From NCBI GenBank assembly GCA_934661375.1, contig CAKUJH010000004.1, forward strand, positions 45,968 to 109,967: 64,000 nt of DNA, given 5' to 3'. The notes beneath the pieces are model-generated. The model ran no database searches. It was not told the DNA's origin and was given only the letters and a program-made list of their open reading frames with translations. The position numbers and the translations under genes are program-made. Positions 8,152-54,841 of this stretch are shown here, piece by piece. Positions within the stretch are counted from its first letter, which is position 1. Every line of letters starts with the position of its first letter. This DNA comes from an uncultured Victivallales bacterium. GTDB lineage: Bacteria; Verrucomicrobiota; Lentisphaeria; Victivallales; UBA1829.

Positions 8152-8183
8152 AACCGCCGCAGACAATCCGAAAACAAAAAAAT

Positions 8184-8215
8184 CAGGACCGCAGGAAAAA
8201 AACTTGCGGTCCTGG
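8184..8215. terminator. GC-rich hairpin terminator, copy 1 of a 32-nt sequence repeated at 17865-17896
   Basis: caggaccgcaggaaaaaaacttgcggtcctgg. On the minus strand the stem is followed by AUUUUUUUGUUUU, directly downstream of the minus-strand stop at 8314. It also lies downstream of the plus-strand stop at 8151. Confidence 0.7.
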
Positions 8216-8313
8216 CTTATATCATGGAGCAGTATAAAATTCAGTATACTGTGCTGCTTGTCCTATACTATATCAGCAACAAAAATCAATTCCGCTGAAT
8301 ATATCCCGTTTTA

Positions 8314-10203
8314 TTATTGAATGAACGGTATTTTTGCTGCTGTTCCATCGGCGTTGATCGGATTCAGCCATTGAATCGTGTCTGGACCGCAAAGTTTCAC
8401 AAAATCCGGAATATCTCCGCTTTTCAGAATGTGTGTTGCGCACAAACCCAGGGTGAACATATTGACAGCCGGCACACAGTTTGACCAGTTCAGCGTAACC
8501 GGAGCATGATCCAACACCAGCTGTTCAGCGGCTTGGTACAACGCGCAGGAAATCAGGGAGGCAACCGCAGCATCTTTATACCCGTAGAATGTGAGCGAGT
8601 TGACTTCATAGTGTGTCCGAAGCCAATTTGCCGCGGCAGTGTAATCCCGAACCCATTCGCCTAAAAGTGTCCACCCGAGCCAGAAACACGTCCGGCCTGT
8701 ATTGTGAAAATCCCACTGATTGGGGTTGCCGTATTCAGCCCCCGTTTCACCAGATGCAAACAAATCAAACAGCAGCAGCCCGTCTTCCGATTTCATCGCT
8801 TCGGAAAGGTATTGATTCTGAGCCAACTGCTGTTTTCCGTAAGGCGCCGAAAGCAGACGCCAGCGGCCGTTCGCAGAAGATCGCAAAAGGGCGGGGAGCG
8901 GGAATCCATGACTTTTCATCAAAACGTGTTTATGCCAGCCGTCTTCCTGTCCTCCGCAAGCAACTTCCGTGATGGTGACCGGAGAACAGTTCAAATTTTT
9001 TTCCAGTTCTGCGCGGCGGATATTTTCATTTTTCGACAAGACGGTCTGCTGAATTTGTTTCCCGCGGGCAGCGCAATAAGCCAAAATTCCTTTTACCTTA
9101 TCCGGACGTTTCCCTCTGGGGTAGACCATTGCTTCATCCTGAGACAGGGGCTGATAATCCTGCAGCCGGCAAGGTCCTCCGTTTCCTTCATTCTTCAGAT
9201 GCCGGCGAAAGAATCCGAGCATATGAGAGAGTGCATCCGCGCCATATAGGTGCGGCGTTGGAAAAATCCGGTATTGCAGATCATTTTCCGCATTCATCAT
9301 TCGGTAGACTGGGCGTGCCGCAATATAAGTTTTCAACATTTCTTCCGGAGTGAATGAGGAATACTGATCGTGCAGACCATTGAACATGGCATAGGCACGT
9401 GGTGCTATGGAAGCGATTAATCCTGCTTCTTCCGCAATACCTAACCCGCCGGGAATCGTTTCGCAGATACAGTTCGGTCCCATGATACAGGCTTGCCACG
9501 TGCCTGCGCTGCAAACAGATACAGCTGCTTTTATCCGATCATCAAATGCCGCCAGGTACATTGTCTGATTGCCTCCGCCGGAGCCGCCGGTAACTCCTAA
9601 CTGATCTGCTTTGACATACGGCAGAGAACAAAGCAAATCCAATGCGCGCATATTGTCTGCGATCTGGATTCCGATCAGAGTTTCTCCCAGATTGTTCAGC
9701 AAAGTTCCCAGCGGTCCGCCATGCGGTTCAAATTCTCCGTGAACCGTAGAACGTTCGCCGGAACCGAAAGCGTCCACACTCAAACAGACAAAACCATTCA
9801 ATGCCAGCAGATGCCCGCGGCTTTGGACACGTTCAGCCAAATGCCCATTCTGCCAGTGCCCATGAACGTTAAGCACTGCCGGAAACGGACCGGGTCCGTC
9901 CGGAACATATAAGCAGCCAGTAACATAACGCTGATCTGCCGCTTGAAAACAGAGTTTTTCCACCCGGTATCCATTTTTTTGAATGATTCCTGTTACTTCC
10001 AGATCCAGCGGCAACGCATGGTTGACTTCCAGGCATATGGCTTTACCGAGACGCGACAGCAATTCCCGGCGTTTTTCCTGCCATTCTGCGGGAGTCGCCG
10101 GCAGTACAGTATGCATGGCAAATTTCTGTTTGCCAATCAGTTTCATGGTCGCGGCAATCAAATCGTCCTGTGCCGAATTCCATACATTGGGCAGTGTATT
10201 CAT
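8314..10203 (-). CDS. Alpha/beta hydrolase (acetyl-xylan-esterase / dienelactone-hydrolase-like)
   Basis: VLNVHGHW, nucleophile elbow GVTGGSGGG, and LCLSVDAFGSGER-type blocks. The ATG at 10203 overlaps the upstream stop as ATGA, so I prefer it to the track start at 10251. Confidence 0.7.
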   Translation of the reverse strand: MNTLPNVWNSAQDDLIAATMKLIGKQKFAMHTVLPATPAEWQEKRRELLSRLGKAICLEVNHALPLDLEVTGIIQKNGYRVEKLCFQAADQRYVTGCLYVPDGPGPFPAVLNVHGHWQNGHLAERVQSRGHLLALNGFVCLSVDAFGSGERSTVHGEFEPHGGPLGTLLNNLGETLIGIQIADNMRALDLLCSLPYVKADQLGVTGGSGGGNQTMYLAAFDDRIKAAVSVCSAGTWQACIMGPNCICETIPGGLGIAEEAGLIASIAPRAYAMFNGLHDQYSSFTPEEMLKTYIAARPVYRMMNAENDLQYRIFPTPHLYGADALSHMLGFFRRHLKNEGNGGPCRLQDYQPLSQDEAMVYPRGKRPDKVKGILAYCAARGKQIQQTVLSKNENIRRAELEKNLNCSPVTITEVACGGQEDGWHKHVLMKSHGFPLPALLRSSANGRWRLLSAPYGKQQLAQNQYLSEAMKSEDGLLLFDLFASGETGAEYGNPNQWDFHNTGRTCFWLGWTLLGEWVRDYTAAANWLRTHYEVNSLTFYGYKDAAVASLISCALYQAAEQLVLDHAPVTLNWSNCVPAVNMFTLGLCATHILKSGDIPDFVKLCGPDTIQWLNPINADGTAAKIPFIQ

Positions 10204-23645: not shown

Positions 23646-24422
23646 TTATTGTAACAGCGTGTAGTCTGGATCTTTTGTGGGAATCAGAACCCGTTTCATG
23701 ATCTCCCACGAGGAGGCGATCCGCGATATATTGGCGGAAGAAATCGAAACGACATGACCGTCCACGCAGATCACATTGCCGCGTCCTGTCACTGTCCGCT
23801 GTCCGCCGTTCACATCGTAAAAAGCCTTATAATTTCCTCCATGACGCGGAGCCAGAGTCTTCTGACTCATTATGGCGACGCCGCGCCAGGTTTTCGTGGA
23901 AGCATTTTCCATCCGGTTGTCTCCGGCAAGAATTTTCCCGCTTGGAGCTTTCACCTGCGGCAGTGCGTATGCGGCAAGTTCACTATTGTAACCGTAGGTG
24001 ATGAAATTGAATCTGCTTCGATCCGCCTGATCCGGTCTGCCCGGTTTGTCCACGCAGGTATCCCCGCTTCCTAAAATGGAACGTGTATGCGTACAGTCTG
24101 TGATGCCGCAGAAATAAATTTTGGGCGAATGAACATATTTCAGATCATACAGCAGCGCACTCCATGGGTAGGTGCTGGTATATTGCGACGGCACCATTCT
24201 TTCCCGGTTGTCATCAATATAGGAAAGAATGGATAAGCCCAGCTGCCGGATGTTGGATTTGCATCCTGCATCTTTGGCAGATTCTTTTGCCCGGTTCAGT
24301 GCGGGCAGCAGCATTGACGCCAGAATGGCAATGATAGCAATCACTACAAGGAGTTCTATCAGTGTGAACGGTAACGGTTTACGCTTCAAATATGAAATGG
24401 ATGAGAACATTTTTGAGGGCAT
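23646..24422 (-). CDS. Prepilin-type N-terminal cleavage/methylation domain protein (pseudopilin-like)
   Basis: [44 protein letters not shown], and C-terminal CVDGHVVS. I chose the ATG at 24422 (ggaagga RBS) over the track start at 24566. Confidence 0.85.
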
Positions 24423-24577
24423 AACTACATTTCCTTCCGCAATTTTGAAGTTGAATTGTTTTCTGCTGAATTCAGGAATCCGGCAGGAGCCGCTCCCGGT
24501 TTTGCGGCAGAGATCTTTTGAGAACCGGTTCATTTTCTGGCTGCACCTCGCTTTCTTTTTCGTCACAGTTTTGTTTT

Positions 24578-34494: not shown

Positions 34495-35334
34495 TTATCT
34501 TAAGAAAAGACCATATTTATACCAGTCTGTGCTGGCGATCCGGCTGCTGATGCTTGCCTGACTGGCTTGCGTATTATTGCGCGGAAAACCGGAATTTTCC
34601 AGCAGAGTGCGGTCTGCCGAAACGGCATGTCCGTCCACGAATGTGGTGTTGCAGCGGTTGACCTTGTGGGCATCCCAGAAACTGCGTTTGTTCTGCAGAT
34701 CCACCCTGGAATATCCGTAAGGTTTGTCAAAATTGCGGATGTCGGCGAAAACCACTTTGGAGGACGGCTGCGGAATGCGTTTGAACAGGACAAATCCAAA
34801 AGCTGATGTGGATTTATACCCGGATACATAGGGATGAACACCGTCCCGGTCATAATAGAGCGTTTTGTTTACCACGCCCCAGCCGTTGTTGAAACCATAA
34901 CCGAACACCGTAAACCGGTAACGCATTTCTGTTTTCTCCTTTCCGGTCTCGATTTTTCTGCTGGAAAAATCATTCTTCGGGCAGCTGTACGCTTTGTATG
35001 CGCTTTCCGGTTTCGGAACCAGTCCGGCTTCGATCAGCCGGTTGCCCCATTCCGGAAGGGTTGACCAATGCGTTTTGTTGTAGGCGGATATCTGCTGATC
35101 ATAGGCGTCCAGATACGCATACAATGTCAGAAACAGTGATTTCTGATTATTGATGCAGGAAATCATTGTCGCCCGGTTCCTTGCCGAATTCAGCGCAGGC
35201 AGGAGCATACCCGCCAGAATCGCAATGATCGCAATCACAACAAGGAGTTCTATCAGTGTGAACCGCAACAAGTTACGTTTCAAATGCGGAATGCGAGATG
35301 TGAAATGGTTGGCAATGACTGTTGTTTTTTTCAT
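34495..35334 (-). CDS. Prepilin-type N-terminal cleavage/methylation domain protein (pseudopilin-like)
   Basis: [43 protein letters not shown], and C-terminal [11 protein letters not shown] at 35334 with RBS aaggag. Confidence 0.85.
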
Positions 35335-35462
35335 GGCAGGGTTCTCCTTTCTGATCTTTTTTCGCAACTTTGATTTTCCTCTGTTTTCATATTCTGCCCA
35401 TTCTCCGGTTTTAATGTTTCATGTCCGCAATCTCCTGTCTTTTTAATTTCATATCTCATATT

Positions 35463-43300: not shown

Positions 43301-44643
43301 GTCAGCCCCATGCCGAGCAGAATCAGACTGACCAGATAGTACGGAATATTGCGGCGGAAGCGTTCCGCGGCGGTGAATTCCGCCAGGTCTCGCCGGCAGA
43401 AGATGAAATTATGCAGCAGACTGCGGATGAACGCGCCCTGCCGTTCCGGACGCGGCTGTTTGATGACCGGCGCATCGTCCACGTTTTTTCCGAGGGCGGA
43501 GGCATATTCGGCATCCAGACAGACCCCGGCGTCTTCCGCGGAGGTGAAGAACACGCCGGACAGGATTGCTTTTTCCGAAGCATGGAGGTTTTCTGTGCCG
43601 AACAGACTTTTGAGATAAAGGGACAGCACCGGTTTCAGGGAATTGAAACTTTCCGGGAAGGTGAAAATATCCCCCGCGGCTGCACCGCGTTCCGCGCCGG
43701 ATGCATCATGCACCTGACGCGACAGCATACCGGAAAGCCGTCCTTCGCAAAGACGGTTTATGACTTTTTCCCAGAAGCTGTCAAAATCCGCGGCGGAAAA
43801 CGTTCCGGCATGTTCGCAGTTCCAGCCGAACACATCATTCCGGAAAGCATCTTTGGCATTGTCGAAATATTCACGGAATCCGACCAGCATGTCGCATTTG
43901 GTCACGACCACCCAGCAGGGCAGGAGCATCCCGACGGAACGGATCAGCCGGTTCAGTTCCGAGGCGATCAGCAGAGCTTTTTTCCGGACCTGCGATTCTT
44001 CATCCGCCAGCAGGGCGTCTGCGGGAATCGTCAGAATGATTCCGTCCAGCGGATGTTTCGCATGTTTTTTCCGGATCAGCTTGACAATCTTTGCCCATTC
44101 TGCGCCGGAGCCGTTCATCCATCTGTCGAAGAAAACCCGTCCGGCGACATCCAGCACCACCGCCTGCGGTGTTGTCCAGAAACGGAGAGGTACCGATTCC
44201 CCTTCCTGCTGATTTTTGTCTTCTTCAACGGAGACGCGGGTATCCATCTGACATTTCCGCAGCAGGGAGGATTTGCCGCAGGATGGTTCGCCGAGCAGCA
44301 TAAACCAGGGCAGGTCATAAGGCTTCCGTTCCAGTTCGGACAGCATTTTCATGCCGCGCCGGAAAAGACCGGGGATCATTGCCGTCCGGACCGTTACCGT
44401 CTCGCGGACAGAGTCTGCACTGTCTCCGCCGCGGGCGAGGCGGTTCAGATTTTTCCATGCCATGAGATCGTCTTTGAGTTTGGCGGTTTCCTTGTTCTTT
44501 GCATGATTTGCGCGGAATTTCCGGTACAGCGGAAGGCACACTCCGAAGACCAGAAGCAGCAGAATGACAAATCCTGCAAGAAGGAGCAGCCAATGCTCTC
44601 CGCACCAGTTGATGAATGTATTGCCGGTTGCTGTCTGATTCAT
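40321..44643 (-). CDS. tssM: T6SS membrane-complex protein TssM (IcmF)
   Basis: 1440 aa. An N-terminal hydrophobic segment, Walker A LLGEPSCGKSSLL, a second TM segment (NIPYYLVSLILLGMGLTFLLSGLYV), and a long periplasmic region. It is the last gene of the T6SS operon. The ATG overlaps the tssL stop as ATGA. Confidence 0.85.
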   Translation of the reverse strand: MNQTATGNTFINWCGEHWLLLLAGFVILLLLVFGVCLPLYRKFRANHAKNKETAKLKDDLMAWKNLNRLARGGDSADSVRETVTVRTAMIPGLFRRGMKMLSELERKPYDLPWFMLLGEPSCGKSSLLRKCQMDTRVSVEEDKNQQEGESVPLRFWTTPQAVVLDVAGRVFFDRWMNGSGAEWAKIVKLIRKKHAKHPLDGIILTIPADALLADEESQVRKKALLIASELNRLIRSVGMLLPCWVVVTKCDMLVGFREYFDNAKDAFRNDVFGWNCEHAGTFSAADFDSFWEKVINRLCEGRLSGMLSRQVHDASGAERGAAAGDIFTFPESFNSLKPVLSLYLKSLFGTENLHASEKAILSGVFFTSAEDAGVCLDAEYASALGKNVDDAPVIKQPRPERQGAFIRSLLHNFIFCRRDLAEFTAAERFRRNIPYYLVSLILLGMGLTFLLSGLYVSPQISRNLKTQTGYYKFIAEKLRDGTLKKSPLIVPDGENSWELTATLPLSGESSILRMNLFASEYDMLTTPVKPPFAFRLSSFLLFGSFTDMGYAEREIIHNGILSNMLMEPMIQIAEQELLKTPADKTVSAAEGAVIREFIRSRTLKKKPWYLFSHDRKDRDNRSIADFMRYLDPDISEASLAYFASYAEDRTTSSMTDNIFLFSKDFSRSCRYGAERLMQAWQNLNIYPESKYGQLREHLQNVLRFSELDKQLRQQIVSPANIAPEQLQANLKQRSALTEEFIRTGKQLFPMNGQNSSAVKSGILDYKDHGITILNQAVASFRDLLEQDYKALSAAASARNPARGNTSMQQEKIELWRKTVLNAINADTAVQKERMPQFYQLCMRPVGIKKTAADSIGPMTLAQLSIRLRELAAAPLHQEKSGKNGFQQNWEANEQKLKEQQSAFDWFAAICGDALGKDDSLIVSERSAMNAAMQYSRWKLLNEEAGRLPASGETLRNRIAGTRQQENVFRIPPELAGQSVGKLEYRQDFDPEAALPLMQNAAALLAKTAASPKGNTGTIQVPTRIKDIRNAFDSYLTEYIAYWRNYPDTLGFHPASYQDFQDRNATLKAYRTNAILGTVYETLRRHLAEIPAELLSPANRKLRDQTIGEFAGVMAVLTPHYTETCLRVVANWNALPKNPLEAWNVISVLPEEQFALNYSIVQGKNEAGNIGWWTHYVEDACALLRQNAVTARAKQYADCIGMIQRFPLCADASGTALSAGDLKRFLEFLPPQKTEPASAKNAGQRIHQLPPDPRFTAADRVWCERAGTIADALTNTLKPLRWSIVVLPADIQKRMCAAIAPGKTPAWLRYRYLTVAAEGAAPVNTRTEGAGKERFLLDGDAAVRRIAFSFMNYSVKGTPELTVSVEHDWAAIRLWLTPGAVYDSAAKLLYVPLYLRDSSGQESVYCIGLRFNKILPSAKEWPRRNSTPEFSRIQEQLKSGR

Positions 44644-45377
44644 TTTCTTTCTCCTGCGGCGGACTGGTCAAGGCTGTCCGCTGTTTTTTCCGAATCCGTG
44701 GAAATGGATGTTGCATAGACTGCGCTGTTCAATGTGCTGCGGTATTCCAGCGTTGCTTTCCGCAGAGCCGCATAATTGTAGATCAGACAGCCCAGCGCGA
44801 ATACGAAGCAGCAAAGAAGAATCCAGAGCGCGGCGCCTGCGGAATGTTTCCGGGGACGTCCGGGTTTCGTGTTTTCTGCCGGATACGGAGTAACCGGCTC
44901 CGAAACCGGGTTGAAATTATGGGCGAACCGCGCGGCGCAGAGCCGCATCCGGTGTTCGATGTATCCGGGATCGCCGCGGTGAACACCGTCGAATCCCAGT
45001 CCCATCATGAAGAAAAATTCTTCCAGACGGTTGTCCGATTCCGGGTCGTCGATGGTCTCCGCCAGCAGTTCAAAGAATTTTTCGTCGCCGGAAAGTTCCT
45101 TGTATCTGCGGGCGAGCAGCGGCCATTCTGCGGAAAACGGCAGATTGCCTTCCTTCACCATATAGTCAATGAAGAAAAGCAGCGGTTTCTCGATCCGGGC
45201 ATATTCCCGCGCCAGAATGTCATCGGCGGCGAGGGTCAGACGGATGGCATCGAACCGGAGTTCCAGTTCATGCTGGAACGATTCCATGGACGGTGCCGCA
45301 CCTGCGGCTGCCCGCCGGCGTGTTTCGCATACAAGCAGAAGAACCGGACGGCATAATTTTTCAAGTCGGCTGCCCAT
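44640..45377 (-). CDS. tssL: T6SS membrane-complex protein TssL (DotU family), with no peptidoglycan-binding extension
   Basis: I chose the ATG at 45377 (aaggagg RBS). DotU-like blocks PLLFFIDYMV, EWPLLARRY, FFELL and FFFMMGLGFDG, plus a C-terminal TM segment ALWILLCCFVFALGCLIY. Confidence 0.8.
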   Translation of the reverse strand: MGSRLEKLCRPVLLLVCETRRRAAAGAAPSMESFQHELELRFDAIRLTLAADDILAREYARIEKPLLFFIDYMVKEGNLPFSAEWPLLARRYKELSGDEKFFELLAETIDDPESDNRLEEFFFMMGLGFDGVHRGDPGYIEHRMRLCAARFAHNFNPVSEPVTPYPAENTKPGRPRKHSAGAALWILLCCFVFALGCLIYNYAALRKATLEYRSTLNSAVYATSISTDSEKTADSLDQSAAGERK

Positions 45378-46734
45378 TTGCGCCTCCTTTGGTGTTGATG
45401 GTGATGTAAAGCGAGGCTTCCAGCTGCGGGAACGATTCGGCGGCATAGTCGATGGCTGCGGCGTTTTCCGCAATAATGTCGTTCCAGATCCGGGCGGATT
45501 CATGCCGTTTCAGCAGAAACCACAGTGTATTCGGCAGGGACGGCAGACAGCGCGGCGGATAATGCAGTTCCTGGAGTCTGACGCCGCGGACCCGTCCGGC
45601 GAGAGCGGAGGGATTCACCAGCTTGAATTCATCGCCCAGTTCCAGTGCATTCACAATTTTTCGGGAGTCGGCGGAACAGCTGACCGCCAGATAATATTCG
45701 CCGGCGGAGGCAAGGCGTTCCGCATCCAGCCGGGCAACCGGAACTCCGTCCTTGTCAGCAAAGTCGATTTTGACAAAGCCCAGTCCGCCGCCGGCAAGAA
45801 TCAGGGCGCGGATTCCGTGGAACAATGCCTGAAAAGCCGGCGCGGCGTCCGGATGCCGGTACGACGGAACCGGTTCGAAAATCCGTTCCGGGTGCAGGGC
45901 GCAGAGCTCGCCGAACAGTACGGACAGTTCCCGGTACAATCCAAACGGATCTGTGGAGCAGGGTTCCAGTGCCGCCTCAAACCGAGCCAGCGCCATGTTG
46001 ACACAACGGAGCTGAAGCATATTGTAGAGATTGGTTCCGGACAGGGTTTCGGGCGAACAGCCGGATTCGGACAGATCGCTGACCAGACGGTCGCGCCGCT
46101 GCCGGAGTTCCCAGACCAGATCCGTCAGCTGCGCATACAGCGGACAGTCCGGGGTAAGACGCAGGAACGGCGGCAGATAGTCCGGGTCGGCAGCCAGTGC
46201 TGTTCCGGATGCTCCCTGTGCCACTCGAACCAGCCGCAGAACCGGCAGCAGTACCATGTCTTTGGCATCTCCCGCCACCAGCCGCACGTTGGGGACGCGG
46301 CGGACCAGTGAAATCTCATTTTCGCCGGAATTTTCATCCCGTACGAGTTTTTCCCGAACCAGAAATGCCCGTTTGTCGTTTTCCGATTCACCGAGGTTCC
46401 CTTCGTGTTCGGAATAACGCGGAATGGCAAGGTGAATCAGAATTCCGCCTTCACCGATTTCCTGTTTTGACACATCCAGTGGCTGGAGCACCGAATTGCC
46501 CGGCATACTGACGCAGGTCCCGTCCGGCATGACGGCGGAAAGCCGCAGAAACTGAATTCTGCCGCCCCGGAGCGCATCGGTGTTCAGTTCGTAATCCAGC
46601 AGTCCGTACGGGAAAGCATGGAAAATTTCGCGGTCCTTGTGGAGCGCATCCGCTCCGTATTTCTGAAGCTGCTGAAAATGGTGCGGCTGAATAAACAGAC
46701 CGTCCGACCAGAATATTTGTTCATCAAATCTCAT
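45361..46734 (-). CDS. tssK: T6SS baseplate protein TssK
   Basis: The N-terminus IFWSDGLFIQPHHFQQLQKY is the canonical TssK signature. 457 aa. Confidence 0.9.
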   Translation of the reverse strand: MRFDEQIFWSDGLFIQPHHFQQLQKYGADALHKDREIFHAFPYGLLDYELNTDALRGGRIQFLRLSAVMPDGTCVSMPGNSVLQPLDVSKQEIGEGGILIHLAIPRYSEHEGNLGESENDKRAFLVREKLVRDENSGENEISLVRRVPNVRLVAGDAKDMVLLPVLRLVRVAQGASGTALAADPDYLPPFLRLTPDCPLYAQLTDLVWELRQRRDRLVSDLSESGCSPETLSGTNLYNMLQLRCVNMALARFEAALEPCSTDPFGLYRELSVLFGELCALHPERIFEPVPSYRHPDAAPAFQALFHGIRALILAGGGLGFVKIDFADKDGVPVARLDAERLASAGEYYLAVSCSADSRKIVNALELGDEFKLVNPSALAGRVRGVRLQELHYPPRCLPSLPNTLWFLLKRHESARIWNDIIAENAAAIDYAAESFPQLEASLYITINTKGGANGQPT

Positions 46735-46751: not shown

Positions 46752-47225
46752 TTATTTTTCACTCCGGATCAGCCCGGACGGCGTTATGCGGAAATGCAGG
46801 GTTTTCCTGAATAAAAATGATTTATCGTATTTCACGGAAATTCTGCGTCCGTCTGCTTTCAGATCGCCCCGGATCGGCAGGTTGACATACAGAATCAGTT
46901 CATCCGGGGATTTTTCCGCCCAGCGGTCCCAGCAGTCCGCACTGCCGGAAAGGGTCCGGGTGCGGAGCGTGTATTGGGAAAACGTCAGCGTCTCCGGACG
47001 AAGAGATGTCCGCATCGGACTGTCCGGCTCGAAGTAGAAATCCACATCCGCATTGCCGGCGCGTCTGGCTTCATCGCCGCCGGTCGCCGCTATATCCACT
47101 TCCAGCGACGGGCATATTCCGAAATGTTTTTCCACTTCCGGCGCGACCGTGACTTCCACATTGGGGGAAAGACAGCCGCAAAGCAGCAGCGCCAGCACTC
47201 CCGGTACCAGTATTTTTATTTTCAT
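46752..47225 (-). CDS. tssJ: T6SS outer-membrane lipoprotein TssJ (assigned by position and lipobox)
   Basis: 157 aa. MKIKILVPGVLALLLCGCLS lipobox. ggagg RBS. It lies immediately upstream of tssK-tssL-tssM. Confidence 0.6.
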   Translation of the reverse strand: MKIKILVPGVLALLLCGCLSPNVEVTVAPEVEKHFGICPSLEVDIAATGGDEARRAGNADVDFYFEPDSPMRTSLRPETLTFSQYTLRTRTLSGSADCWDRWAEKSPDELILYVNLPIRGDLKADGRRISVKYDKSFLFRKTLHFRITPSGLIRSEK

Positions 47226-47243: not shown

Positions 47244-48485
47244 TTATTTCCAGCGTTTGTATTCTGTTTTCGGTATGTTCTGCGATGAATCCGGATTGGA
47301 TTTTCCGGTTATCGCTTCATGCGGCGCATTCAGTTCCGTCAGCGCATCCGGCCAGAGATTTCTGGCGAGAACCACTTCCATCCCCAGTGAAAAATAAATC
47401 TCATATCGTTCCGGAGCTTTCCGGGTGCCGCCCGGCGCCATTGCCATCATCAGCAGTGCGCTGTTGAGTCCGGTTCCGGGGAGTTCCGGCGGTGTCGGAA
47501 TAATGATTTTTCCTTCCGGCGCCATGTCTCCGAAACTCCAGAACGCCGTATAGGCAAGCATTCCTTCCGGTGTTCCGGGCGCCTGATTTCCGCATTCCAG
47601 AGCCAGACGCGAATTCACCTCGTCCGGAGCGGCAACCCAGCGGTACACCGCCTGAACTGCCGCTTCGGAACGTTTTTTCCGGTCCGTCATCATTTGCAGG
47701 GATACTTCCGGAGTCGCCGGATATTTCTGCGGCAGAGCCGCTTTGACCTGGGCGGCGACCGCCTGCCGCTGTGTTTCGATTGCTTCGCGCAGACGCAGAA
47801 ACGCTTCCATTTCCGGCGTATCCGTGCGGTTGATCCGGTAGGTCAGCGGCGAAGTTTCCGCCGTTTGTTTCGCTGTCTGGAACCGGGCTTCCGCGGTTGT
47901 TCCGAACCTCTGCCGGGTCAATTGACGCAATGCCTCCCGTTTCTGCTGATAAAAATCCCGGACCGGAGCGGGTATCAGACCGGTCAGCGCGCTGGTTTTT
48001 TCTTTCATTTTTGCGGAAGCCGCCGCAATTCCGGACGGGTCTTCGGGCGGCAGAGCCGGGAAGGACGCCAGTTCTTTGAGGTCAAAGTCCGGCATCTTCG
48101 CCATATTGTCAATATCGGTCGGATTCCCTTCCAGCGCGGGCAGGGTGACTCCGGTTTTTTTCAGCTGCTGACGCAATTCCGCTGCGTGCGGATTTTCCGG
48201 CGGCTGCTCTGCGTTTTGAAGTTCTTCCAGAAGAGAGAGCAGACAGATATAACCCCACCACACTGCGGCGCGGCGGTGCAGCATACGCGCGATGAATTCG
48301 CAGCCGTCCCGGAACAACCCTTTCTGCCGGAAGGCTTCCAGCAGTTCCATGGATTCCGGGTGTGCTTCGAACAGCGGTTTCAGATCCGGACGTATTCTGT
48401 AATTTTCGCGTTCGGCGACAGGACGCCACAGCGTATCACGCAAAAGCACGGAGTGCCGGTTCATCCATTCCAGTTTGTCTGCCAT
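47244..48485 (-). CDS. T6SS-embedded protein of unknown function (Y, 413 aa)
   Basis: ATG at 48485 with a gggagg RBS. No signal peptide or clear TM segment. Tryptophan-rich patches (RAAVWWGYICLL, YTAFWSFGD) and a central Q/A/R/T-rich helical-looking region. I recognise no family. Confidence 0.7.
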   Translation of the reverse strand: MADKLEWMNRHSVLLRDTLWRPVAERENYRIRPDLKPLFEAHPESMELLEAFRQKGLFRDGCEFIARMLHRRAAVWWGYICLLSLLEELQNAEQPPENPHAAELRQQLKKTGVTLPALEGNPTDIDNMAKMPDFDLKELASFPALPPEDPSGIAAASAKMKEKTSALTGLIPAPVRDFYQQKREALRQLTRQRFGTTAEARFQTAKQTAETSPLTYRINRTDTPEMEAFLRLREAIETQRQAVAAQVKAALPQKYPATPEVSLQMMTDRKKRSEAAVQAVYRWVAAPDEVNSRLALECGNQAPGTPEGMLAYTAFWSFGDMAPEGKIIIPTPPELPGTGLNSALLMMAMAPGGTRKAPERYEIYFSLGMEVVLARNLWPDALTELNAPHEAITGKSNPDSSQNIPKTEYKRWK

Positions 48486-48500
48486 AATACCTGCCTCCCT

Positions 48501-49037
48501 TTACACCTGCGTTTTCAGCGCATTGATTTTGGTTTGCAGTGTTGCCACTTGGGTGGACATGGCGGTTGCCGCTGTTTCCAGGGCATTGGCATGGTCGGTA
48601 ACCGCAGTTACATCCGTGGTAAGTGACTGAATATCAGTCCGTATTGCGGCGAATTTGGAGTCCAGAGCCGCGGCGGCTCTGGTGGCGGAAACACTGACGG
48701 AACTTTCCAGTCCGGTCAGACTCAGCCAGAACCCGGTGAAAGTGATGGAGGCAAGCGTAAAGCTGGCGCCGAATGCTTTCACGTCAATTCCGACACCTAC
48801 GGCTGTGGCGGACCCGCCGGTCGCGGAGGCATCGGCAATTTTTGCTCCGGCTCCGCCGAACGATACTTCCGCTGTCCATTTCGATTTGCCGGAATCATCC
48901 GCTTCCGTGCTGTTTTTATCCATTTCGACATTTCCATCGGAAGGACTGCCTTTCCCGGAAGCTCCGGACTGCAGAAAATTTACGCATCCGGAAAACGGAC
49001 TGCTCAGACTGTCCAGAATATTTTCATTTGCACTCAT
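48501..49037 (-). CDS. T6SS-embedded small protein of unknown function (X, 178 aa)
   Basis: ATG at 49037. Its RBS TAAGGAGG incorporates the vgrG TAA stop. It has a G/S/A/D-rich N-terminal half, a hydrophobic segment FGASFTLASITFTGFWLSLTGL, and a ~60-aa T/A-rich coiled-coil-like C-terminus (AAIRTDIQSLTTDVTAVTDHANALETAATAMSTQVATLQTKINALKTQV). Confidence 0.7.
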   Translation of the reverse strand: MSANENILDSLSSPFSGCVNFLQSGASGKGSPSDGNVEMDKNSTEADDSGKSKWTAEVSFGGAGAKIADASATGGSATAVGVGIDVKAFGASFTLASITFTGFWLSLTGLESSVSVSATRAAAALDSKFAAIRTDIQSLTTDVTAVTDHANALETAATAMSTQVATLQTKINALKTQV

Positions 49038-49047
49038 CAGAACCTCC

Positions 49048-51894
49048 TTATTTGCTGCCCGCGCCGTCGGCGTAATCGGAAATGGTTTTGTTGGACAGGT
49101 CATTCACGAACTTGACATTCAGATCCAGCTGATGACCGCGGACAGTGATGCTGGAAGACAGTTCGGAGGCAATGCTTCCGTTGACGGTTTCCACCGCCTG
49201 CCGCTGCACATCCAGCTGTTCCGCAAAAGCCTGAGCGCGGATCAGCTCCCGTTCGGTAACGGCAACCGAAGGAGAACCGCCGGGAATTTCCCGGAACATT
49301 TCCGCAGACGCTGCTGTGCTTCGGACCGTATAGGATGACATGTTGCCCAGTTCCCCCGCAGTCCGTGCCAGTGCGGAATACGTACCGCGGAAATTGGCAG
49401 CCGGCGGCAGCGATGTCTTGGTGTCGCACATGACGCTGCTGTCCAGATCCACTCCGCGGTCTGCAATGGAACGCGGCTTTCCGTCCGGTGTCTTGCCGCT
49501 TTTCCAGGCGTCCAGAGTACGGGTGATTTCGTTCAGCCCGGAGGTTTCATCCAGATGGGAAAACGCATCGGTCATCTTGTCGCGCGGCACGGTTGCCACA
49601 TCCACGACTGCGCCGGCTCCCATGAGAACCCCGTTGGCAACCTGGATGGATGCGCCGAGCGCATCGGTCAGCAGGGCGGAGAACAGACTGTTGAACCGGA
49701 GGTTTGCGCCCGATACGGAAACTCCGTCCGTCGCATTGATGCAGACCGTTGAATCGTAATTGGTTACGGTGTCCAGCACTTTCAGCGACCGGAGCATGAT
49801 ACCGTTCTGGTTTACTGTAACGGACGACGCCCCCGAAACCGACCGGACCACGCCTTCGCTTTGCAGATTCACCATGCGGCTGCCGTTGATATTGACCGCC
49901 GCCGCGGAAATGTTGAGCGTACCGTCCGTTTTGATGTCGATGCCCTGCTTCGAATACTGGAGAATCGACCCTTGCGTGAACAGTCGCAGCACATTGCCGG
50001 TACAGAACGGATTGCGGTCCAGTTCGAAAACACTCACGGCTTCTTTTGCCAGCGCGGTCAGAGCCAGCGCGGAATCATTGCCCGGCGACAGAAAATAATT
50101 TTTCCGTACCGTCAGCAGACGCGGTTTCCAGTTCAGCTCGACATCCGCGCGTTTCTCCTGACTGTTTTCATCAAATGCCAGCTGCATGAGAAACGCATAG
50201 GCGGTTCCGTCCACGATTTTCTGTTCCATGGCTTCGGAAGCCTGTTCATAACGGGAAAAACCGATTTCGTCATATTGACCGGACAGATCCTTTTCTTTTC
50301 CCGGAGCGGAATACCGCAGAGCGGAAGCATTGCGTGCGTGAGTATCTGTCCCGTCGGTGAATTCGCTGAAAGCTCCCGTTTTATCCGGGGAATATCCCAG
50401 CAGCACAACTTTGTCCGGTTCTTCCAGAAGCAGCACCCGTTCGCCGACGCGCGGGAACCGGTACAGTCCGGAACGTTTTCCGCCGAGCGGCATATTCATT
50501 TCCACATCAATGCAGGGATTTTCGGAATCGGCATTTTCGTTGCGGACCAGAAAACGCCAGGGCGTATCCGGCATGGAGCGCGGCGACTGCACCAGCGTGT
50601 TGCGGGTTTGCGGGTCATCCGTCTTTCCGTTGATGTCGCAGACAATTGCCTCCCGGATGACCGGGGCTTCGCTTCGCTGCATTTCCGGTTCTTTCGCGCA
50701 GAAACGCCTGTCCTGCGCGTCTTCCGCATAATCCATGCAGTGAAAGGACAGTTCAAAAACTCCGGCATCCGTGGAATCATCCAGCGTAACGGACAGTTCC
50801 GAATGGAGAATTTTCACTGTTACCGGCGGATCGTCCGGCTGCGCCCGGTAGAAACTGCGGATTTTCAGGATTTCGCCCGGTACCGGCAGCAGCAGAGAAG
50901 TGGTCCCGTGCCAGTCATCCTGTTCCAGACGGAACGCCCTGCCTTGCGCTTCTGCCGCGCAGTCTGCACTGGCGGATACGGTGTCATCGTCAATGTCATT
51001 TCCATGATCTGCCGGAGTTCTGTCAGAAAGATAAACGCTGCTGCCGTCTCCGTTTTCTGCATGAATGGTCCGGGATTCCAGCGGGTGCAGGAAATTTCCT
51101 TTGACGGCATCTGTTCCGATTCCGACGGACGCGCTGAACTGTTTTATGGGAAACGCCGTATCTGCGGAAATCATACTGAAATCGAACACTCCGTTTTCCG
51201 CTTGTGCCGCCAGCTGGTTCTGCTGATCCGCCGGATAACCGGTGAATTCAAAGGCACAGGTTCCGGGATATGCGTTGCCGTCGGAAAGATAAAGCATTTC
51301 CTGTCCGGCTGTTTCGTGGCGGAAGAAAAAAGAAATACCGTATCGCGCCATAATCCGGCGGACGAAATCGAAATCGGTTTCATCGCGCTGGAAGAAGCGG
51401 AGTCCACCGGAATATTTTTCCGCGGTTATGTATTTTGAATCGATCACTGCGGAAATGCCGTGCCGACGGAATACCGACTGAACGGTTTTCAGCGGCGTTG
51501 TGTCTGGATAATCCAGGGTCCGGCGGACGTATTTCAGCGCGGCGGCTTCCGGTTCAAGAGTCAGATGCAGCAGCACTCCTTTGGTGAAGCGTTTGCCGAA
51601 CTGTTTCAGCCAGCCGGGATGCAGGGATGCGGCTCCGGTTACGGAATAACGGGTTACAACGCCGTGCAGCGGACGCCGGATAATTCCGCCGTTGTAAAAC
51701 TGTTCAATGGTCAGCGTAACGCGTTTCCGCAGAAGATCGTTCTTCAGCGATGAAAGGGTCAGGCTGGATTCCGGAATGACCAGGTCGGCGTCCGCACGGT
51801 ACAGTTCGGAAATCCCTTCCCGGAGGGTAAGCCCCCAGACCTGGCTGTCTGCCAGTCCGCCGTCCTGAAACTGAATGTTGATCTGCGATTTCAT
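49048..51894 (-). CDS. vgrG: T6SS spike protein VgrG (TssI) with an extended C-terminus
   Basis: 948 aa. A gp27-like N-terminal region, a gp5 OB-fold block MPLGGKRSGLYRFPRVGERVLLLEEPDKVVLLG, a short beta-helix-like segment (~residues 640-735), and a ~200-aa tail with no recognisable domain. Confidence 0.85.
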   Translation of the reverse strand: MKSQINIQFQDGGLADSQVWGLTLREGISELYRADADLVIPESSLTLSSLKNDLLRKRVTLTIEQFYNGGIIRRPLHGVVTRYSVTGAASLHPGWLKQFGKRFTKGVLLHLTLEPEAAALKYVRRTLDYPDTTPLKTVQSVFRRHGISAVIDSKYITAEKYSGGLRFFQRDETDFDFVRRIMARYGISFFFRHETAGQEMLYLSDGNAYPGTCAFEFTGYPADQQNQLAAQAENGVFDFSMISADTAFPIKQFSASVGIGTDAVKGNFLHPLESRTIHAENGDGSSVYLSDRTPADHGNDIDDDTVSASADCAAEAQGRAFRLEQDDWHGTTSLLLPVPGEILKIRSFYRAQPDDPPVTVKILHSELSVTLDDSTDAGVFELSFHCMDYAEDAQDRRFCAKEPEMQRSEAPVIREAIVCDINGKTDDPQTRNTLVQSPRSMPDTPWRFLVRNENADSENPCIDVEMNMPLGGKRSGLYRFPRVGERVLLLEEPDKVVLLGYSPDKTGAFSEFTDGTDTHARNASALRYSAPGKEKDLSGQYDEIGFSRYEQASEAMEQKIVDGTAYAFLMQLAFDENSQEKRADVELNWKPRLLTVRKNYFLSPGNDSALALTALAKEAVSVFELDRNPFCTGNVLRLFTQGSILQYSKQGIDIKTDGTLNISAAAVNINGSRMVNLQSEGVVRSVSGASSVTVNQNGIMLRSLKVLDTVTNYDSTVCINATDGVSVSGANLRFNSLFSALLTDALGASIQVANGVLMGAGAVVDVATVPRDKMTDAFSHLDETSGLNEITRTLDAWKSGKTPDGKPRSIADRGVDLDSSVMCDTKTSLPPAANFRGTYSALARTAGELGNMSSYTVRSTAASAEMFREIPGGSPSVAVTERELIRAQAFAEQLDVQRQAVETVNGSIASELSSSITVRGHQLDLNVKFVNDLSNKTISDYADGAGSK

Positions 51895-51903
51895 GATGCT
51901 GCC

Positions 51904-52194
51904 TCAAACCAGAAAATTGATTCCGACGGTGATTGCTTCCGCTGTCGCAACGGGAACTCCGGTTACCGGGTTGACTCCGGCAACCATCGAAGTCAGCGAG
52001 GCGACGGGGCGTCCTCCGACCAGATAGGTCGGATGCATGGATACGGTGATTGCGCCGGTGCAGACCGCCCCCGTTACCGTGTCTCCCATGCAGGCGACAG
52101 GCAATCCGTTGACCAGAAAACAGGGGAATCCCGGACCGGTGATCAGGTCGCCGGTCGCGGAAACGCCGGCAATTGTCGAGACGGGGAACGGCAT
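51904..52194 (-). CDS. PAAR-domain spike-tip protein (minimal, 96 aa)
   Basis: I chose the ATG at 52194 (aggagg RBS, 1 nt after the clpV stop). PAAR-like blocks GDLITGPG, NGLPVACMGD, TG.VCTG and GGRPVA. Confidence 0.8.
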   Translation of the reverse strand: MPFPVSTIAGVSATGDLITGPGFPCFLVNGLPVACMGDTVTGAVCTGAITVSMHPTYLVGGRPVASLTSMVAGVNPVTGVPVATAEAITVGINFLV

Positions 52195-52195
52195 G

Positions 52196-54841
52196 TCAGA
52201 CCTCCTTCCGCAGTTTGAACCGGTAGATGAAACGGCCGTTTTCGGCATCGAGTCCCGCATGGGAGAACGATTTCCCTTCCATGACGGTTTCCAGAAATTT
52301 CATGCTGAGTTCCGGCAGCAGATCGTTGTTGATGATCGCGTCGATCATGCGTGCGCCCGACGCAATGTTATCGCACCGGCTGATGATTTCATCCCGGACG
52401 GCATCCGTGTACGCCAGTTCTGCATGATAGTTTTCTTTCACCCGGCGCACGACTTTGTTGAGTTTCAGGTCAATGATCCGGTTCAGCGCCGCTTTGCCCA
52501 GCGGATAGTACGGCACAATGGAAAGACGTCCGAGCAGTGCCGCCGGAAAATGTTTCAGCATGGCGGGACGGACTGCGTTTTCCAGAATCTTGACGTCCGG
52601 CAGATGCTCTTCATCGCCGCAAAGACGCATGATTTCCTCGTCGCCAACATTGGTGGTCAGGAGTATGACCGTGTTCCGGAAGTTGATGAGGCGTCCTTCG
52701 CCGTCCTCCATCTGACCTTTGTCGAAGACCTGGAAAAAGATTTCATGGACATCCGGATGCGCCTTTTCGATTTCGTCGAGCAGGACGACGCTGTACGGTT
52801 TGCGGCGGACCGCTTCGGTCAGCACACCGCCTTCACCGTATCCGACGTACCCCGGAGGTGCGCCTTTGAGCGTGGAAACCGTGTGGGCTTCCTGAAATTC
52901 ACTCATGTTGATGGTGATCAGACTCTGTTCGCTGCCGTAAAGCTGGTCGGCAAGTGTGAGCGCCGTTTCCGTTTTGCCTACGCCGCTCGGTCCCGCCAGC
53001 ATGATGACCGCAATCGGACGGTTGGGATCCGCCAGAGACGCCCGTGCCGTCTGAATCCGGCGTGCAATCAGTTCCAGTCCGTGTTTCTGCCCGATGACCC
53101 GTCTGTTCATTTCATCGGCAAGTTTCAGAATGGACTGGATTTCGTTTTTGACCATGCGGCCCAGCGGGATTCCGGTCCATTCGGAGATAATGGTGCAGAC
53201 TGCCTGTTCATCCACCTGCGGGAAAATCATGGGCGTTTCGCCTTGCAGATCACGCAGTTTTTTCTCAACGGCGCGGAGCTTATCCAGAGTTTTGCTGTCC
53301 TGTCCGTTTTCCCGGAGCTGATCCCGGAGCCGGGTGTATTCCCGCACCAGCTTCTTCTCTTTTTCCGTCCGTGCGGCAAGTTCGTCGCGGTGTTTTTTTT
53401 CGGCGTCAAGTCCGGCTTTCAGTTTTTCCAGGGCTTCCGTGTGATCCTGTCCGGACGCCTGTTCACGGGTCAGAATATCCGTTTCCAGTTCCAGAGCCGC
53501 AATTTTCCGGCGGGAATATTCCAGACTGGCGGGTTCGGCGTTCTGGCTCATGGCGACTCTGGCACATGCGGTATCCAGAATGCTGACCGCTTTATCCGGC
53601 AGCTGACGGGCGGGAATATAGCGGCGGGACAGTTTGACTGCCGCTTTCAGCGCTTCATCCAGCACCAGCACTCCGTGATGTTTTTCCAATGCCCCGACCA
53701 TTCCGCGCATCATCTGAATGGCCTTGCCGTCATCCGGTTCATCCACTAAAATGTTCTGGAAACGGCGGGTCAGTGCCGGGTCTTTTTCGAAATACTTGAC
53801 ATATTCCTGCCAGGTGGTTGCCGCAATGCAGCGCAGTTCGCCGCGGGCAAGGGCGGGTTTGAGCAGATTGGCGGCGTCGTTCTGTCCGGCGGCTCCTCCA
53901 GCCCCGATCAGAGTGTGCGCTTCGTCAATGAACAGAATGATCGGCACATCGGAATTCTGTACTTCCTCAATGACGCTTTTCAGACGGTTTTCAAATTCCC
54001 CTTTCATGCTGGCTCCCGCCTGAAGCAGTCCGATGTCCAGCGAACGCAGCACTGTTCCTTTCAGACAGTCCGGCACATCCCCGGACGCCAGCCGCTGGGC
54101 AAAGCCTTCAACGACAGCGGTTTTTCCTACGCCGGCTTCTCCGGTGAGAATCGGGTTGTTCTGCCGTCGCCGCATCAGAATGTCGATGATTTTACGGATC
54201 TCCGAATCTCGTCCCACGATCGGGTCGCATTTGCCGTTCCGGGCTTTTTCCGTCATGTCGACCGTATAGAGCCGCAGGGCTTCCCCTTTGCCCATCGCGG
54301 GCGCACTCAACATGGCTCCCGCCTGACCCGTTGCCGCGGATTCCCCGGAGTAAACCACGGAAGTTTCCGTTGAATTCTGTACAATTTTCCGGAAATTTTC
54401 CTGCAGCAGATCCGCATTGATTTTGGCAAATTCCATGCTGATGTCCAGCAGAGTACGCGAAAGTTCCGGTGTCTGACGGATCGCCAGCAGCAGGTGTCCG
54501 GTGCGGATCGCCGTTTCGCTGAAAACCAGCGACGCCAGCATCCAGGCTTCTTTCACCGCGATTTCGATCTGATTGGAAAAATCGGATATGCTTCCGGCTC
54601 CGCGCGGCAGACGGTCCATCGCCGCGGTCAGGTCTTTGGCAAGTTTCGCCGTGTCCAGCTGAAATTCCCGCACGGCACAGCTCCAGTCCGTGTTGTCGGT
54701 CAGCAGTATCTGGTTCACCCAATGCACCAGTTCCACATAGGGATTGCCGCGCGTTTTGCACAGAATGGTCGCGCTTTCTATGGTTTTATATGCGGTCTGG
54801 TCCAGTTTTCCGAAAAGCTGAATGCGTTTCAATTTACTCAT
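52196..54841 (-). CDS. clpV: T6SS AAA+ disassembly ATPase ClpV (TssH)
   Basis: Two AAA modules ([13 protein letters not shown] and [11 protein letters not shown]). The ClpV-type N-domain starts [25 protein letters not shown] prefer the ATG at 54841 to the track start at 54871. Confidence 0.9.

Follow-up and report, generated by a model that had tools for sequence, protein, structure and literature searches.

The window analyzed here is a stretch of 64,000 nucleotides (nt) from an uncultured Victivallales bacterium (assembly GCA_934661375.1, contig CAKUJH010000004.1, positions 45,968 to 109,967) whose minus strand carries a complete and compact type VI secretion system (T6SS) cluster. The genes of this cluster are arranged in the order tssA, tssB, tssC, hcp, tssE, tssF, tssG, clpV, PAAR, vgrG, X, Y, a gene for a TssJ-like lipoprotein, tssK, tssL, and tssM. 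Genes following vgrG are the classic site of T6SS cargo and adaptors, and X, a small gene located between vgrG and the DUF6931 gene Y, is the subject of this report. Comparison with related loci indicates that X represents, at this locus, a slot of the T6SS spike module that is widespread and has gone undescribed. The vgrG-X-Y region contains the following features.

49048 to 51894, minus strand: vgrG, encoding the T6SS spike (948 amino acids [aa]; Pfam Phage_GPD, E = 1.2e-21; NCBIfam TssI/VgrG, E = 7e-20)
49043 to 49050, minus strand: TAAGGAGG, in which the vgrG stop codon runs directly into the Shine-Dalgarno sequence of X, located 5 nt from the ATG (direct reading of the sequence)
48501 to 49037, minus strand: X, encoding a member of the X-type family described below (178 aa plus stop; ATG at 49037, TAA at 48503 to 48501)
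48494 to 48500, minus strand: AGGGAGG, the Shine-Dalgarno sequence of Y, abutting the X stop codon and 8 nt from the Y ATG (direct reading)
47244 to 48485, minus strand: Y, encoding a long-form DUF6931 protein (413 aa; Pfam PF22011, E = 1.5e-24), soluble and all-alpha (AlphaFold2 [AF2] predicted local distance difference test [pLDDT] score, 84)

At the junction between vgrG and X, the minus strand reads GGCAGCAAA-TAA-GGAGG-TTCTG-ATG, with AAA directly before the TAA, such that the vgrG stop codon (49050 to 49048) supplies the first three bases of TAAGGAGG. This arrangement bears out an earlier proposal that the ribosome binding site of X includes the vgrG stop codon. The X/Y junction is built alike (TAA-AGGGAGG-CAGGTATT-ATG), with Y starting at 48485. 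The intergenic gaps are 10 nt (vgrG-X) and 15 nt (X-Y), and scanning of both gaps detected neither promoter-like nor terminator-like sites. A longer, 200-aa reading of X from an ATG at 49103, overlapping vgrG, was not supported by the orthologues: the orthologue in contig L008 begins at the equivalent of 49037, and the gene-caller length was 178 aa in L006, L007, and L008.

These three contigs, from Hadza and other human-gut metagenomes, carry orthologues of X; the L008 orthologue exhibits 85% identity. Contigs near-identical to the window were likewise found in Hadza and other human-gut metagenomes. The ratio of nonsynonymous to synonymous substitution rates (dN/dS) between X and this orthologue was 0.24 overall, with values of 0.50 for residues 1 to 55, 0.13 for residues 56 to 124, and 0.19 for residues 125 to 178. 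In the same comparison, the ratios were 0.11 for vgrG, 0.155 for Y, and 0.066 for tssK, and the dN of X exceeded that of vgrG about twofold and that of tssK about fourfold. X is, therefore, a real gene under purifying selection that is translationally coupled to vgrG and Y. The open reading frame (ORF), orthologues, dN/dS, and junction sequence agree on this point with the first-pass annotation, which had described X as a genuine gene coupled to vgrG. Two antisense ORFs on the plus strand, at 47694 to 48626 (310 aa) and 48655 to 49338 (227 aa), overlap Y, X, and vgrG; given that conservation and purifying selection are seen for the genes of the minus strand, these ORFs are probably artefacts of composition.

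The X-type family and its slot in the spike module

A word-indexed search with X detected one match, a 98% orthologue fragment, and an exhaustive phmmer search of 1.84 billion representatives returned the same orthologue and three coiled-coil noise matches. This sole database homologue (P0001; ENA, 720-bp contig) has two substitutions through residue 131 and is then completely divergent, which looks like a frameshift or the chimeric end of a very short contig. A profile constructed from 10 family members detected 3 proteins only in the database, and no match to X was observed on plasmids by tblastn. Sequence searches of Pfam, NCBIfam, PHROGs, and the PDB yielded subthreshold coiled-coil matches only; matches to Baculo_PEP_C, LPP, IcmG/DotF, Rz-like spanin, tail needle, and sigma-1 were rejected as compositional. 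X matched none of DUF4123, DUF1795/Eag, DUF2169, or PAAR in Pfam or NCBIfam, and Y matched DUF6931 alone. Thus, X seems to be an orphan by sequence search, and it is synteny through Y that reveals its family.

At least 149 homologues of Y were found, and their contexts were drawn from assemblies and one-genome-per-species contigs. The closest named relatives of Y were from Kiritimatiellia, Verrucomicrobia UBA1727, and Victivallis metagenome-assembled genomes (MAGs). At loci where Y was at least 44% identical to the window protein, the slot held proteins of the X type, and a metagenome scan for close relatives added only L085 to L089 to this sub-lineage. X-type proteins were observed at the following loci.

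L001 (Verrucomicrobia UBA1727-like): 194, 187, and 173 aa
L003 and L004: 241, 244, and 245 aa
L012 (Victivallis): 150 aa and two further paralogues
L072 (Treponema MAG): 126 aa
L089: 152 aa
L121: 129 and 138 aa
L122: 235, 216, and 241 aa
L123: 118 and 115 aa

The layout of X, after vgrG and beside a long-form DUF6931 gene, was repeated in L001, L003, L012, L072, L089, and L121 to L123, and every X-type gene was located between vgrG and DUF6931 or flanked DUF6931. Homologues of X that were unlinked to vgrG had been put forward as evidence against a connection with the spike; the relatives of X were always vgrG linked, so that this condition does not refute such a connection.

Relationships among these proteins were supported by several comparisons. 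A leave-one-out hidden Markov model (HMM) of 16 X-type cores, from which X and its orthologues were excluded, detected X with an E value of 1.7e-13 (47.3 bits; HMM positions 12 to 121) among 1457 ORFs. BLASTP of X against the 194-aa protein of L001 gave an E value of 6e-5 over 119 colinear residues, and reciprocal phmmer searches between X and L121_129, L121_138, and L012_150 gave values of 1e-5 to 1e-3 in the 1457-ORF database. A core motif is common to X (GASFTLASITFTGFWLSLTG), L121_138 (TIASITWTGFYSA), and L004_244 (VNASLTLASCSATGISLDF), and a coiled-coil motif is common to X (ATRAAAALDSKFAAIRT...INALKTQV) and L121_129 (AARTSAKAMDSKFENIHT...VEALRTQT). The family plan begins with a short N-terminal helix and a variable spacer, continues with a conserved amphipathic core of the beta type, and ends in a C-terminal coiled coil; X follows this plan in having an S/T/G/A-rich core of period 2 and then C-terminal heptads. 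These comparisons indicate that X is a member of an unnamed, rapidly diversifying family (X type).

In several paralogues, the N-terminal helix is separated from the core by uninterrupted collagen-like GXY triplets (9 in the three L001 proteins and runs of 14, 27, and 28 in others), and one of these proteins matched Scl/Lcl collagen-like adhesin models below threshold. The longest run in X itself is two GXY triplets. As collagen helices are obligate trimers, the X-type family is most simply read as one of trimeric rods. The first-pass annotation had suggested a trimer of X, and the fusion of core and coiled coil to 9 to 28 GXY triplets in paralogues makes this plausible.

The gene just upstream of DUF6931 was examined in 79 nonredundant loci and encoded a second type of small protein, termed Z, in 60, an X-type protein in 6, and another protein in 7, while contig ends intervened in 6. 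The slot was hence filled by Z or X-type genes in 66 of the 73 informative loci. Z is an unnamed protein of ∼130 aa found in Treponema, Spirochaetaceae, Mucispirillum schaedleri, Succinatimonas, gut Alphaproteobacteria, and some Victivallales. DUF6931 follows within 250 nt for 69 of 77 Z genes, and a VgrG-like ORF precedes within 200 nt for 51 of the 77. X had been presented as a candidate novel cargo or spike-associated factor; it is not unique and fills a slot that is occupied, at most related T6SS loci, by a conserved protein of ∼130 aa.

Z consists of an Ala/Gly/Val-rich hydrophobic segment (Kyte-Doolittle [KD] mean, 1.7 to 1.9), a 'TNY...LTGDxEMHPT' linker, and nine or ten Ala-rich heptads, ending in ALRTKAGASDIE[TV]KALKMT. 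Z and X share the position after vgrG and before a long-form DUF6931 gene and an arrangement of a hydrophobic segment followed by 8 to 10 heptads running to the C terminus, with a last heptad of V-K-A-L-K-M-T in Z and I-N-A-L-K-T-Q in X. They differ in that the segment of Z is helix-like and of transmembrane (TM) grade while that of X is beta-like and weaker and in that Z is highly conserved while the X-type proteins are hypervariable. A search with a Z HMM (78 members) detected no X-type protein at an E value of ≤0.01. Alignment of the two families by hhalign gave probabilities of 2% to 4% (P = 0.011 to 0.02) and was confined to the coiled coil; the best score of 20.2 (P = 0.011; 3.9%) compared with 5.5 to 11.2 for 21 reversed or shuffled controls. 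The subthreshold matches of the X-type HMM were all Z proteins, except for L062_113, which occupies the same slot, and the alignment was colinear, pairing the hydrophobic part of Z with the core and heptads with heptads and ending at the same C-terminal ALK. Homology of the X type and Z was, however, not demonstrable with the Z HMM or hhalign. The two types appear to be positional and architectural equivalents, and common descent is possible but unproven.

The triad of vgrG, small gene, and DUF6931 is also found away from complete clusters. In L121, the order hcp-vgrG-129aa-DUF6931-PAAR is followed by vgrG-138aa-DUF6931 and then by housekeeping genes. Repeated units of VgrG, or a VgrG C-terminal half, followed by Z were observed in L016 (alphaproteobacterial) and L084 (Succinatimonas), and the same pattern, judged by gene size only, was present in L022 and L029. 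These arrangements indicate that the small-gene unit is mobile and that it goes with the spike rather than with the membrane complex. Between the duplicates in L121, the small proteins are 31% identical, the VgrGs 63%, and the DUF6931 proteins 60%, indicating that the triad duplicates as a unit and that the small protein diverges fastest. Copy number (1 to 3) and length (115 to 245 aa) of X-type proteins vary between close loci. Paralogues occur in tandem, with three in each of L001, L122, and L012, two in L123, and two adjacent copies in L004, while one further paralogue lies downstream of DUF6931 in L003 and L004. This pattern of diversification resembles that of exposed or cargo proteins.

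Other features were observed at these loci. The two tandem modules of L121 (3081 to 13119) come after a candidate effector of 462 aa (1581 to 2969), with MafB19-like/cytidine deaminase domains, encoded directly after clpV. VgrG-like C-terminal halves of 490 to 590 aa have genes of their own in Treponema and alphaproteobacterial loci (L005, 3360 to 6055; L016, 7150 to 8901; L019, 7800 to 9413). In L005, this half directly follows a 399-aa gp27-like N-terminal half, and in L016, it lies downstream of DUF6931 with its own Z gene next. Large Gly-rich proteins with signal-peptide-like N termini and no Pfam domain are encoded after vgrG and before the X-type paralogues in L001 (2064 to 4067; 667 aa) and L003 (3481 to 5979; 832 aa).

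Y is composed of a helical N-terminal extension of ∼260 aa and a C-terminal canonical DUF6931 domain (145 aa, the C-terminal quarter), which hhalign matched to a 195-aa Vibrio DUF6931 protein with 97% probability over residues 272 to 378 of Y. Among 88 DUF6931 homologues, 20 positions are invariant, including H11, H70, W76, W77, Y79, E88, and W283. The long form belongs to a T6SS lineage of gut anaerobes that includes Planctomycetes-Verrucomicrobia-Chlamydiae (PVC) bacteria, Treponema, Mucispirillum, Succinatimonas, and alphaproteobacterial MAGs. On plasmid p2 of Vibrio crassostreae (NZ_AP025479.1; L124), vgrG, the gene for the 195-aa canonical DUF6931 protein (E = 3e-49), and PAAR are consecutive (6776 to 9648) and the small gene is absent. 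Matches by tblastn to the DUF6931 region were also detected on plasmids of V. europaeus, V. tubiashii, and V. gigantis; the context was viewed for V. crassostreae only. On this evidence, DUF6931 belongs to the spike module independently of the small gene. The ∼260-aa extension co-occurs with the small gene, a contrast resting on a single lineage, and this co-occurrence hints that the extension is a binding module for the small protein.

DUF6931 is mentioned in a single paper in the literature searched, and a paper on the V. parahaemolyticus T6SS2 secretome contains no information on it. A Pseudovibrio preprint (10.64898/2026.06.19.733351) describes DUF6931 and PAAR downstream of vgrG, an arrangement similar to that of the Vibrio plasmids, and labels a DUF6931 gene after vgrG as putative 'SsdA-like immunity.' This label was not substantiated here, as Y had no match in the PDB by sequence profile and a Foldseek search with its AF2 model returned nothing with an E value of <1. 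The Mucispirillum T6SS is said to be syntenic with that of Helicobacter hepaticus, and a paper on the Campylobacter jejuni T6SS describes a variable region after vgrG but not the triad; literature searches yielded no account of the triad or of collagen-like T6SS proteins.

Predicted architecture of X

The first-pass annotation had divided X into a disordered-looking G/S/D-rich N-terminal half, a hydrophobic segment of about 22 residues suited to membrane insertion, and a heptad-like C terminus. The regions recognized here are as follows.

48873 to 49028, minus strand: residues 4 to 55, helices (4 to 24) and a G/S/D-rich spacer (25 to 55) (AF2 pLDDT, <50; dN/dS for residues 1 to 55, 0.50)
48702 to 48872, minus strand: residues 56 to 112, the most constrained part of X, an S/T/G/A-rich core of short amphipathic beta-strand-like units that contains F89-L110 (dN/dS for residues 56 to 124, 0.13)
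48708 to 48773, minus strand: F89-L110, the hydrophobic segment of the first-pass annotation, inside the conserved family core
48504 to 48701, minus strand: residues 113 to 178, a C-terminal alpha-helical coiled coil of 8 heptads

The AF2 model of X was generated from an alignment of 4 sequences and had a mean pLDDT of 47.7, such that the C-terminal helix alone is usable. Residues 4 to 24 were modeled as two short helices of low confidence and align with the N-terminal stretch of the paralogues in one MAFFT alignment. The spacer has a pLDDT of ∼30 and is under relaxed constraint; it lines up with the collagen-like GXY region of the paralogues, of which it may be a decayed version. The N terminus of X is not signal-peptide-like by sequence, and any export would, therefore, need the T6SS.

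A TM helix was expected to contain a segment of about 19 residues with a mean KD hydrophobicity of at least about 1.6. The best 19-residue mean in X was 1.34 (residues 80 to 98), below this level. The hydrophobic moment of the F89-L110 region favoured strand over helix periodicity, and the family-mean hydrophobicity alternated with a period of 2 over residues ∼65 to 116, with a few phase slips. This pattern is interpreted as reflecting five or six beta strands, short and amphipathic, rather than a helix. In the AF2 model, residues 113 to 177 form a single helix (pLDDT, 66 to 90), and all of the a (F, I, V, A, A, V, I, V) and d (L, I, L, V, L, M, L, L) positions of the eight heptads are hydrophobic. 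Hence, the G/S/D-rich stretch of low confidence (residues 25 to 55) and the C-terminal heptads of the earlier three-part description were recovered, the latter as eight clean heptads in the last 65 residues, while the segment between them lacked TM-grade hydrophobicity and exhibited strand-like alternation throughout the family.

Possible roles of the small protein

Our preference, held tentatively and at somewhat less than even odds, is that X is a spike-mounted oligomeric passenger kept soluble by DUF6931. X would be made in step with VgrG and Y, as each stop codon abuts the next Shine-Dalgarno sequence and the gaps are 10 to 18 nt. Its coiled coil would then mediate oligomerization, a trimer being the likeliest state to judge from the collagen-bearing paralogues. 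Cytoplasmic Y would shield the aggregation-prone core of X, a role suggested by the obligate adjacency of the two genes and by the absence of any other role for Y. The co-duplication of the small gene with vgrG and its diversification pattern suggest that X would be mounted on the VgrG spike and leave the cell with it. Finally, and speculatively, X might engage the envelope of the target through adhesion or insertion of its beta core.

This arrangement has parallels among known T6SS helpers. Eag/DUF1795 proteins, with prePAAR-TMD (TM domain) effectors, DUF4123, and DUF2169 are chaperones or adaptors for T6SS cargo with hydrophobic regions. The systems are alike in having a hydrophobic, aggregation-prone passenger beside vgrG/PAAR and a dedicated gene for a soluble helper. 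They differ in that neither X nor Y matches these domains, X has no toxin domain, the gene order here is vgrG, passenger, and helper, and the helper role of DUF6931 is itself inferred. In shape, the long heptad coiled coil of X recalls the P22 gp26 tail needle, reovirus sigma-1, Scl1/Scl2, and Lcl. The best PDB and PHROG matches of X were phage or virus coiled-coil fibres, none of them significant (PDB, E = 0.19 to 1.5; PHROG tail needle, E = 0.008), with the phmmer matches to PDB needles and fibres (E = 1.4 to 1.5) and the PHROG tail needle match all lying within the coiled coil. The likeness to Scl/Lcl extends to the true GXY runs of the X-type paralogues and their matches below the model cutoffs. 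X differs from collagen-like proteins and needles in having no collagen run, LPXTG anchor, or signal peptide and in its T6SS context, which is neither that of a phage nor that of a cell wall. By analogy, X resembles chaperone-dependent cargo in logic and phage needles or collagen-like proteins in shape, and the defining features of these groups were not demonstrated for it.

Several observations weigh against a passenger. No recognizable toxin, lipase, nuclease, or pore-forming domain was detected in X in Pfam, NCBIfam, PDB, or PHROGs searches, and the cluster holds no candidate immunity gene. AF2 yielded no confident fold and no confident beta-hairpin for residues 1 to 112, leaving both the beta core and the oligomer as matters of inference. 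The VgrG of the window has a gp27/gpD-like N terminus, and its long C-terminal extension closes with a conserved helix and beta tail; the last ∼60 aa are conserved in the L121 and L089 VgrGs, and this tail shows no obvious covariation with the small protein. The high conservation of Z across phyla would also be less usual for cargo than for a structural part.

This last point bears on a second explanation, which we consider possible but rather doubtful, namely, that X, like Z, is a non-cargo part of the spike or baseplate, structural or for assembly, that is needed for firing rather than for harm to the target. Such a part could pair with the long C-terminal extension of VgrG or sit as a rod within the lumen of the hub or tube, acting as a plug or initiator; a coiled-coil/collagen rod would, we suggest, suit the lumen. 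The filling of the slot in 66 of 73 informative loci, the strong conservation of Z from Treponema to Mucispirillum and Succinatimonas, the location of X within a compact core operon without effector or immunity genes, and the position of Z directly after VgrG C-terminal halves are all consistent with this role. However, X-type proteins diverge far faster than their neighbours (31% identity compared with 60% to 63% for VgrG and DUF6931), their variation in number and length between close loci would be unusual for a fixed part, and Vibrio T6SSs with a short DUF6931 manage without the small gene.

An extended version of the passenger explanation, which we regard as unlikely, is that a trimeric fibre dedicated to the spike is mounted on it and chaperoned by DUF6931 and that the amphipathic beta module inserts into the target envelope, as an oligomeric barrel or anchor, or acts as an adhesive or receptor-binding tip. 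In some paralogues, a collagen triple helix would lengthen the coiled coil, and hypervariability and paralogue expansion would set target specificity, much as in phage tail fibres. Such a function is not known to have been described for a T6SS.

It is similarly improbable that X is a membrane-active, pore-forming toxin, acting either through the F89-L110 helix or through an oligomeric beta barrel of amphipathic strands. This role would be in keeping with the S/T/G-rich, period-2 amphipathic strands seen throughout the family, the means of oligomerization offered by the coiled coil, the position of X after vgrG, and its fast evolution. Pore formation had been deduced from the presumed membrane insertion of F89-L110 and does not follow from this segment, given its weak hydrophobicity (1.34, under the TM-helix threshold) and period-2 alternation; beta-type insertion of the core is speculative. 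Further points against a pore former are that no family of known pore formers was matched by X, that AF2 gave no confident beta-hairpin, and that no membrane-bound or periplasmic immunity candidate is present, with Y being soluble and cytoplasmic-looking. Known small membrane-active T6SS effectors (Tse4, Ssp6, and the Tme family) contain TM-grade helices or glycine zippers and are encoded beside a membrane immunity protein. X is like these proteins in being small, nonenzymatic, hydrophobic, and T6SS linked but lacks both the TM-grade helix or glycine zipper and the neighbouring membrane immunity protein.

The adjacency and translational coupling of X and Y and the 'SsdA-like immunity' label given to DUF6931 in preprint 10.64898/2026.06.19.733351, which was not substantiated here, could suggest a toxin-immunity pair; we consider this very unlikely. 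X has no toxin domain, and Y is conserved over phyla rather than being a fast-evolving immunity gene: the 20 positions that are invariant among 88 sequences speak against an immunity function, and L121 DUF6931 proteins are still 60% identical where the small proteins share 31%. DUF6931 occurs with Z, with X-type proteins, or, in Vibrio, with no small gene, and Y has no sequence or fold match to solved immunity proteins. The immunity function that had been implied for Y hence finds no support in a conserved, soluble, all-alpha protein whose domain also lies between vgrG and PAAR on Vibrio plasmids, and Y fits a spike-module helper better.

Least probable of all is an inner-membrane or periplasmic role for X in the TssJLM membrane complex. 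This role would be in keeping with the position of X two genes upstream of tssJ and with a Z segment hydrophobic enough for a TM helix (KD, 1.73 to 1.85), but X has no signal peptide or convincing TM helix, the small gene moves with vgrG and DUF6931 in orphan modules lacking tssJKLM, and, by reading, acidic residues flank the Z segment rather than a positive-inside pattern.

If X does ride the spike, it would represent a class of nonenzymatic, fibre-like passengers and DUF6931 would be a new chaperone family; if X is structural, this T6SS lineage would have an extra core component. The triad is conserved in gut anaerobes of several phyla, among them Mucispirillum schaedleri, a commensal of mice, as well as PVC bacteria of the human gut and Treponema of the termite gut. 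Either outcome would improve the annotation of many 'hypothetical' genes of gut metagenomes and provide a testable handle on the role of these T6SSs in the gut.

Other genes of the cluster and window

Two further genes flank the vgrG-X-Y region.

51904 to 52194, minus strand: PAAR spike-tip protein, directly upstream of vgrG (Pfam PAAR_motif, E = 2e-7; 96 aa, as called in L006 and L008)
46752 to 47225, minus strand: TssJ-like lipoprotein of 157 aa with an LLLCGC lipobox, the first gene of the tssJ-K-L-M block

The start of the PAAR gene is ambiguous: the longest ORF (51904 to 52260; 118 aa) overlaps clpV, and orthologous contigs have 96 aa. The start of tssL (44640 to 45503, minus strand) is likewise ambiguous, with an ORF of 287 aa compared with 245 or 215 aa in orthologous contigs. 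The TssJ-like lipoprotein matched no Pfam or NCBIfam model, and its position was found by phmmer to be conserved across related loci. Outside the T6SS cluster, the window contains genes for carbohydrate-active enzymes, transporters, and LacI regulators. Proteins with prepilin-type N-terminal methylation motifs are encoded there as well, at 23646 to 24566 and 34495 to 35367 (minus strand), among glycoside-hydrolase genes, as would suit a genome of the Lentisphaerota/Kiritimatiellota type. The near-identical human-gut contigs and the closest named relatives of Y indicate that the source is probably an uncultured gut member of the PVC group. Neither a second vgrG nor an obvious effector-immunity pair was observed in this remainder of the window.

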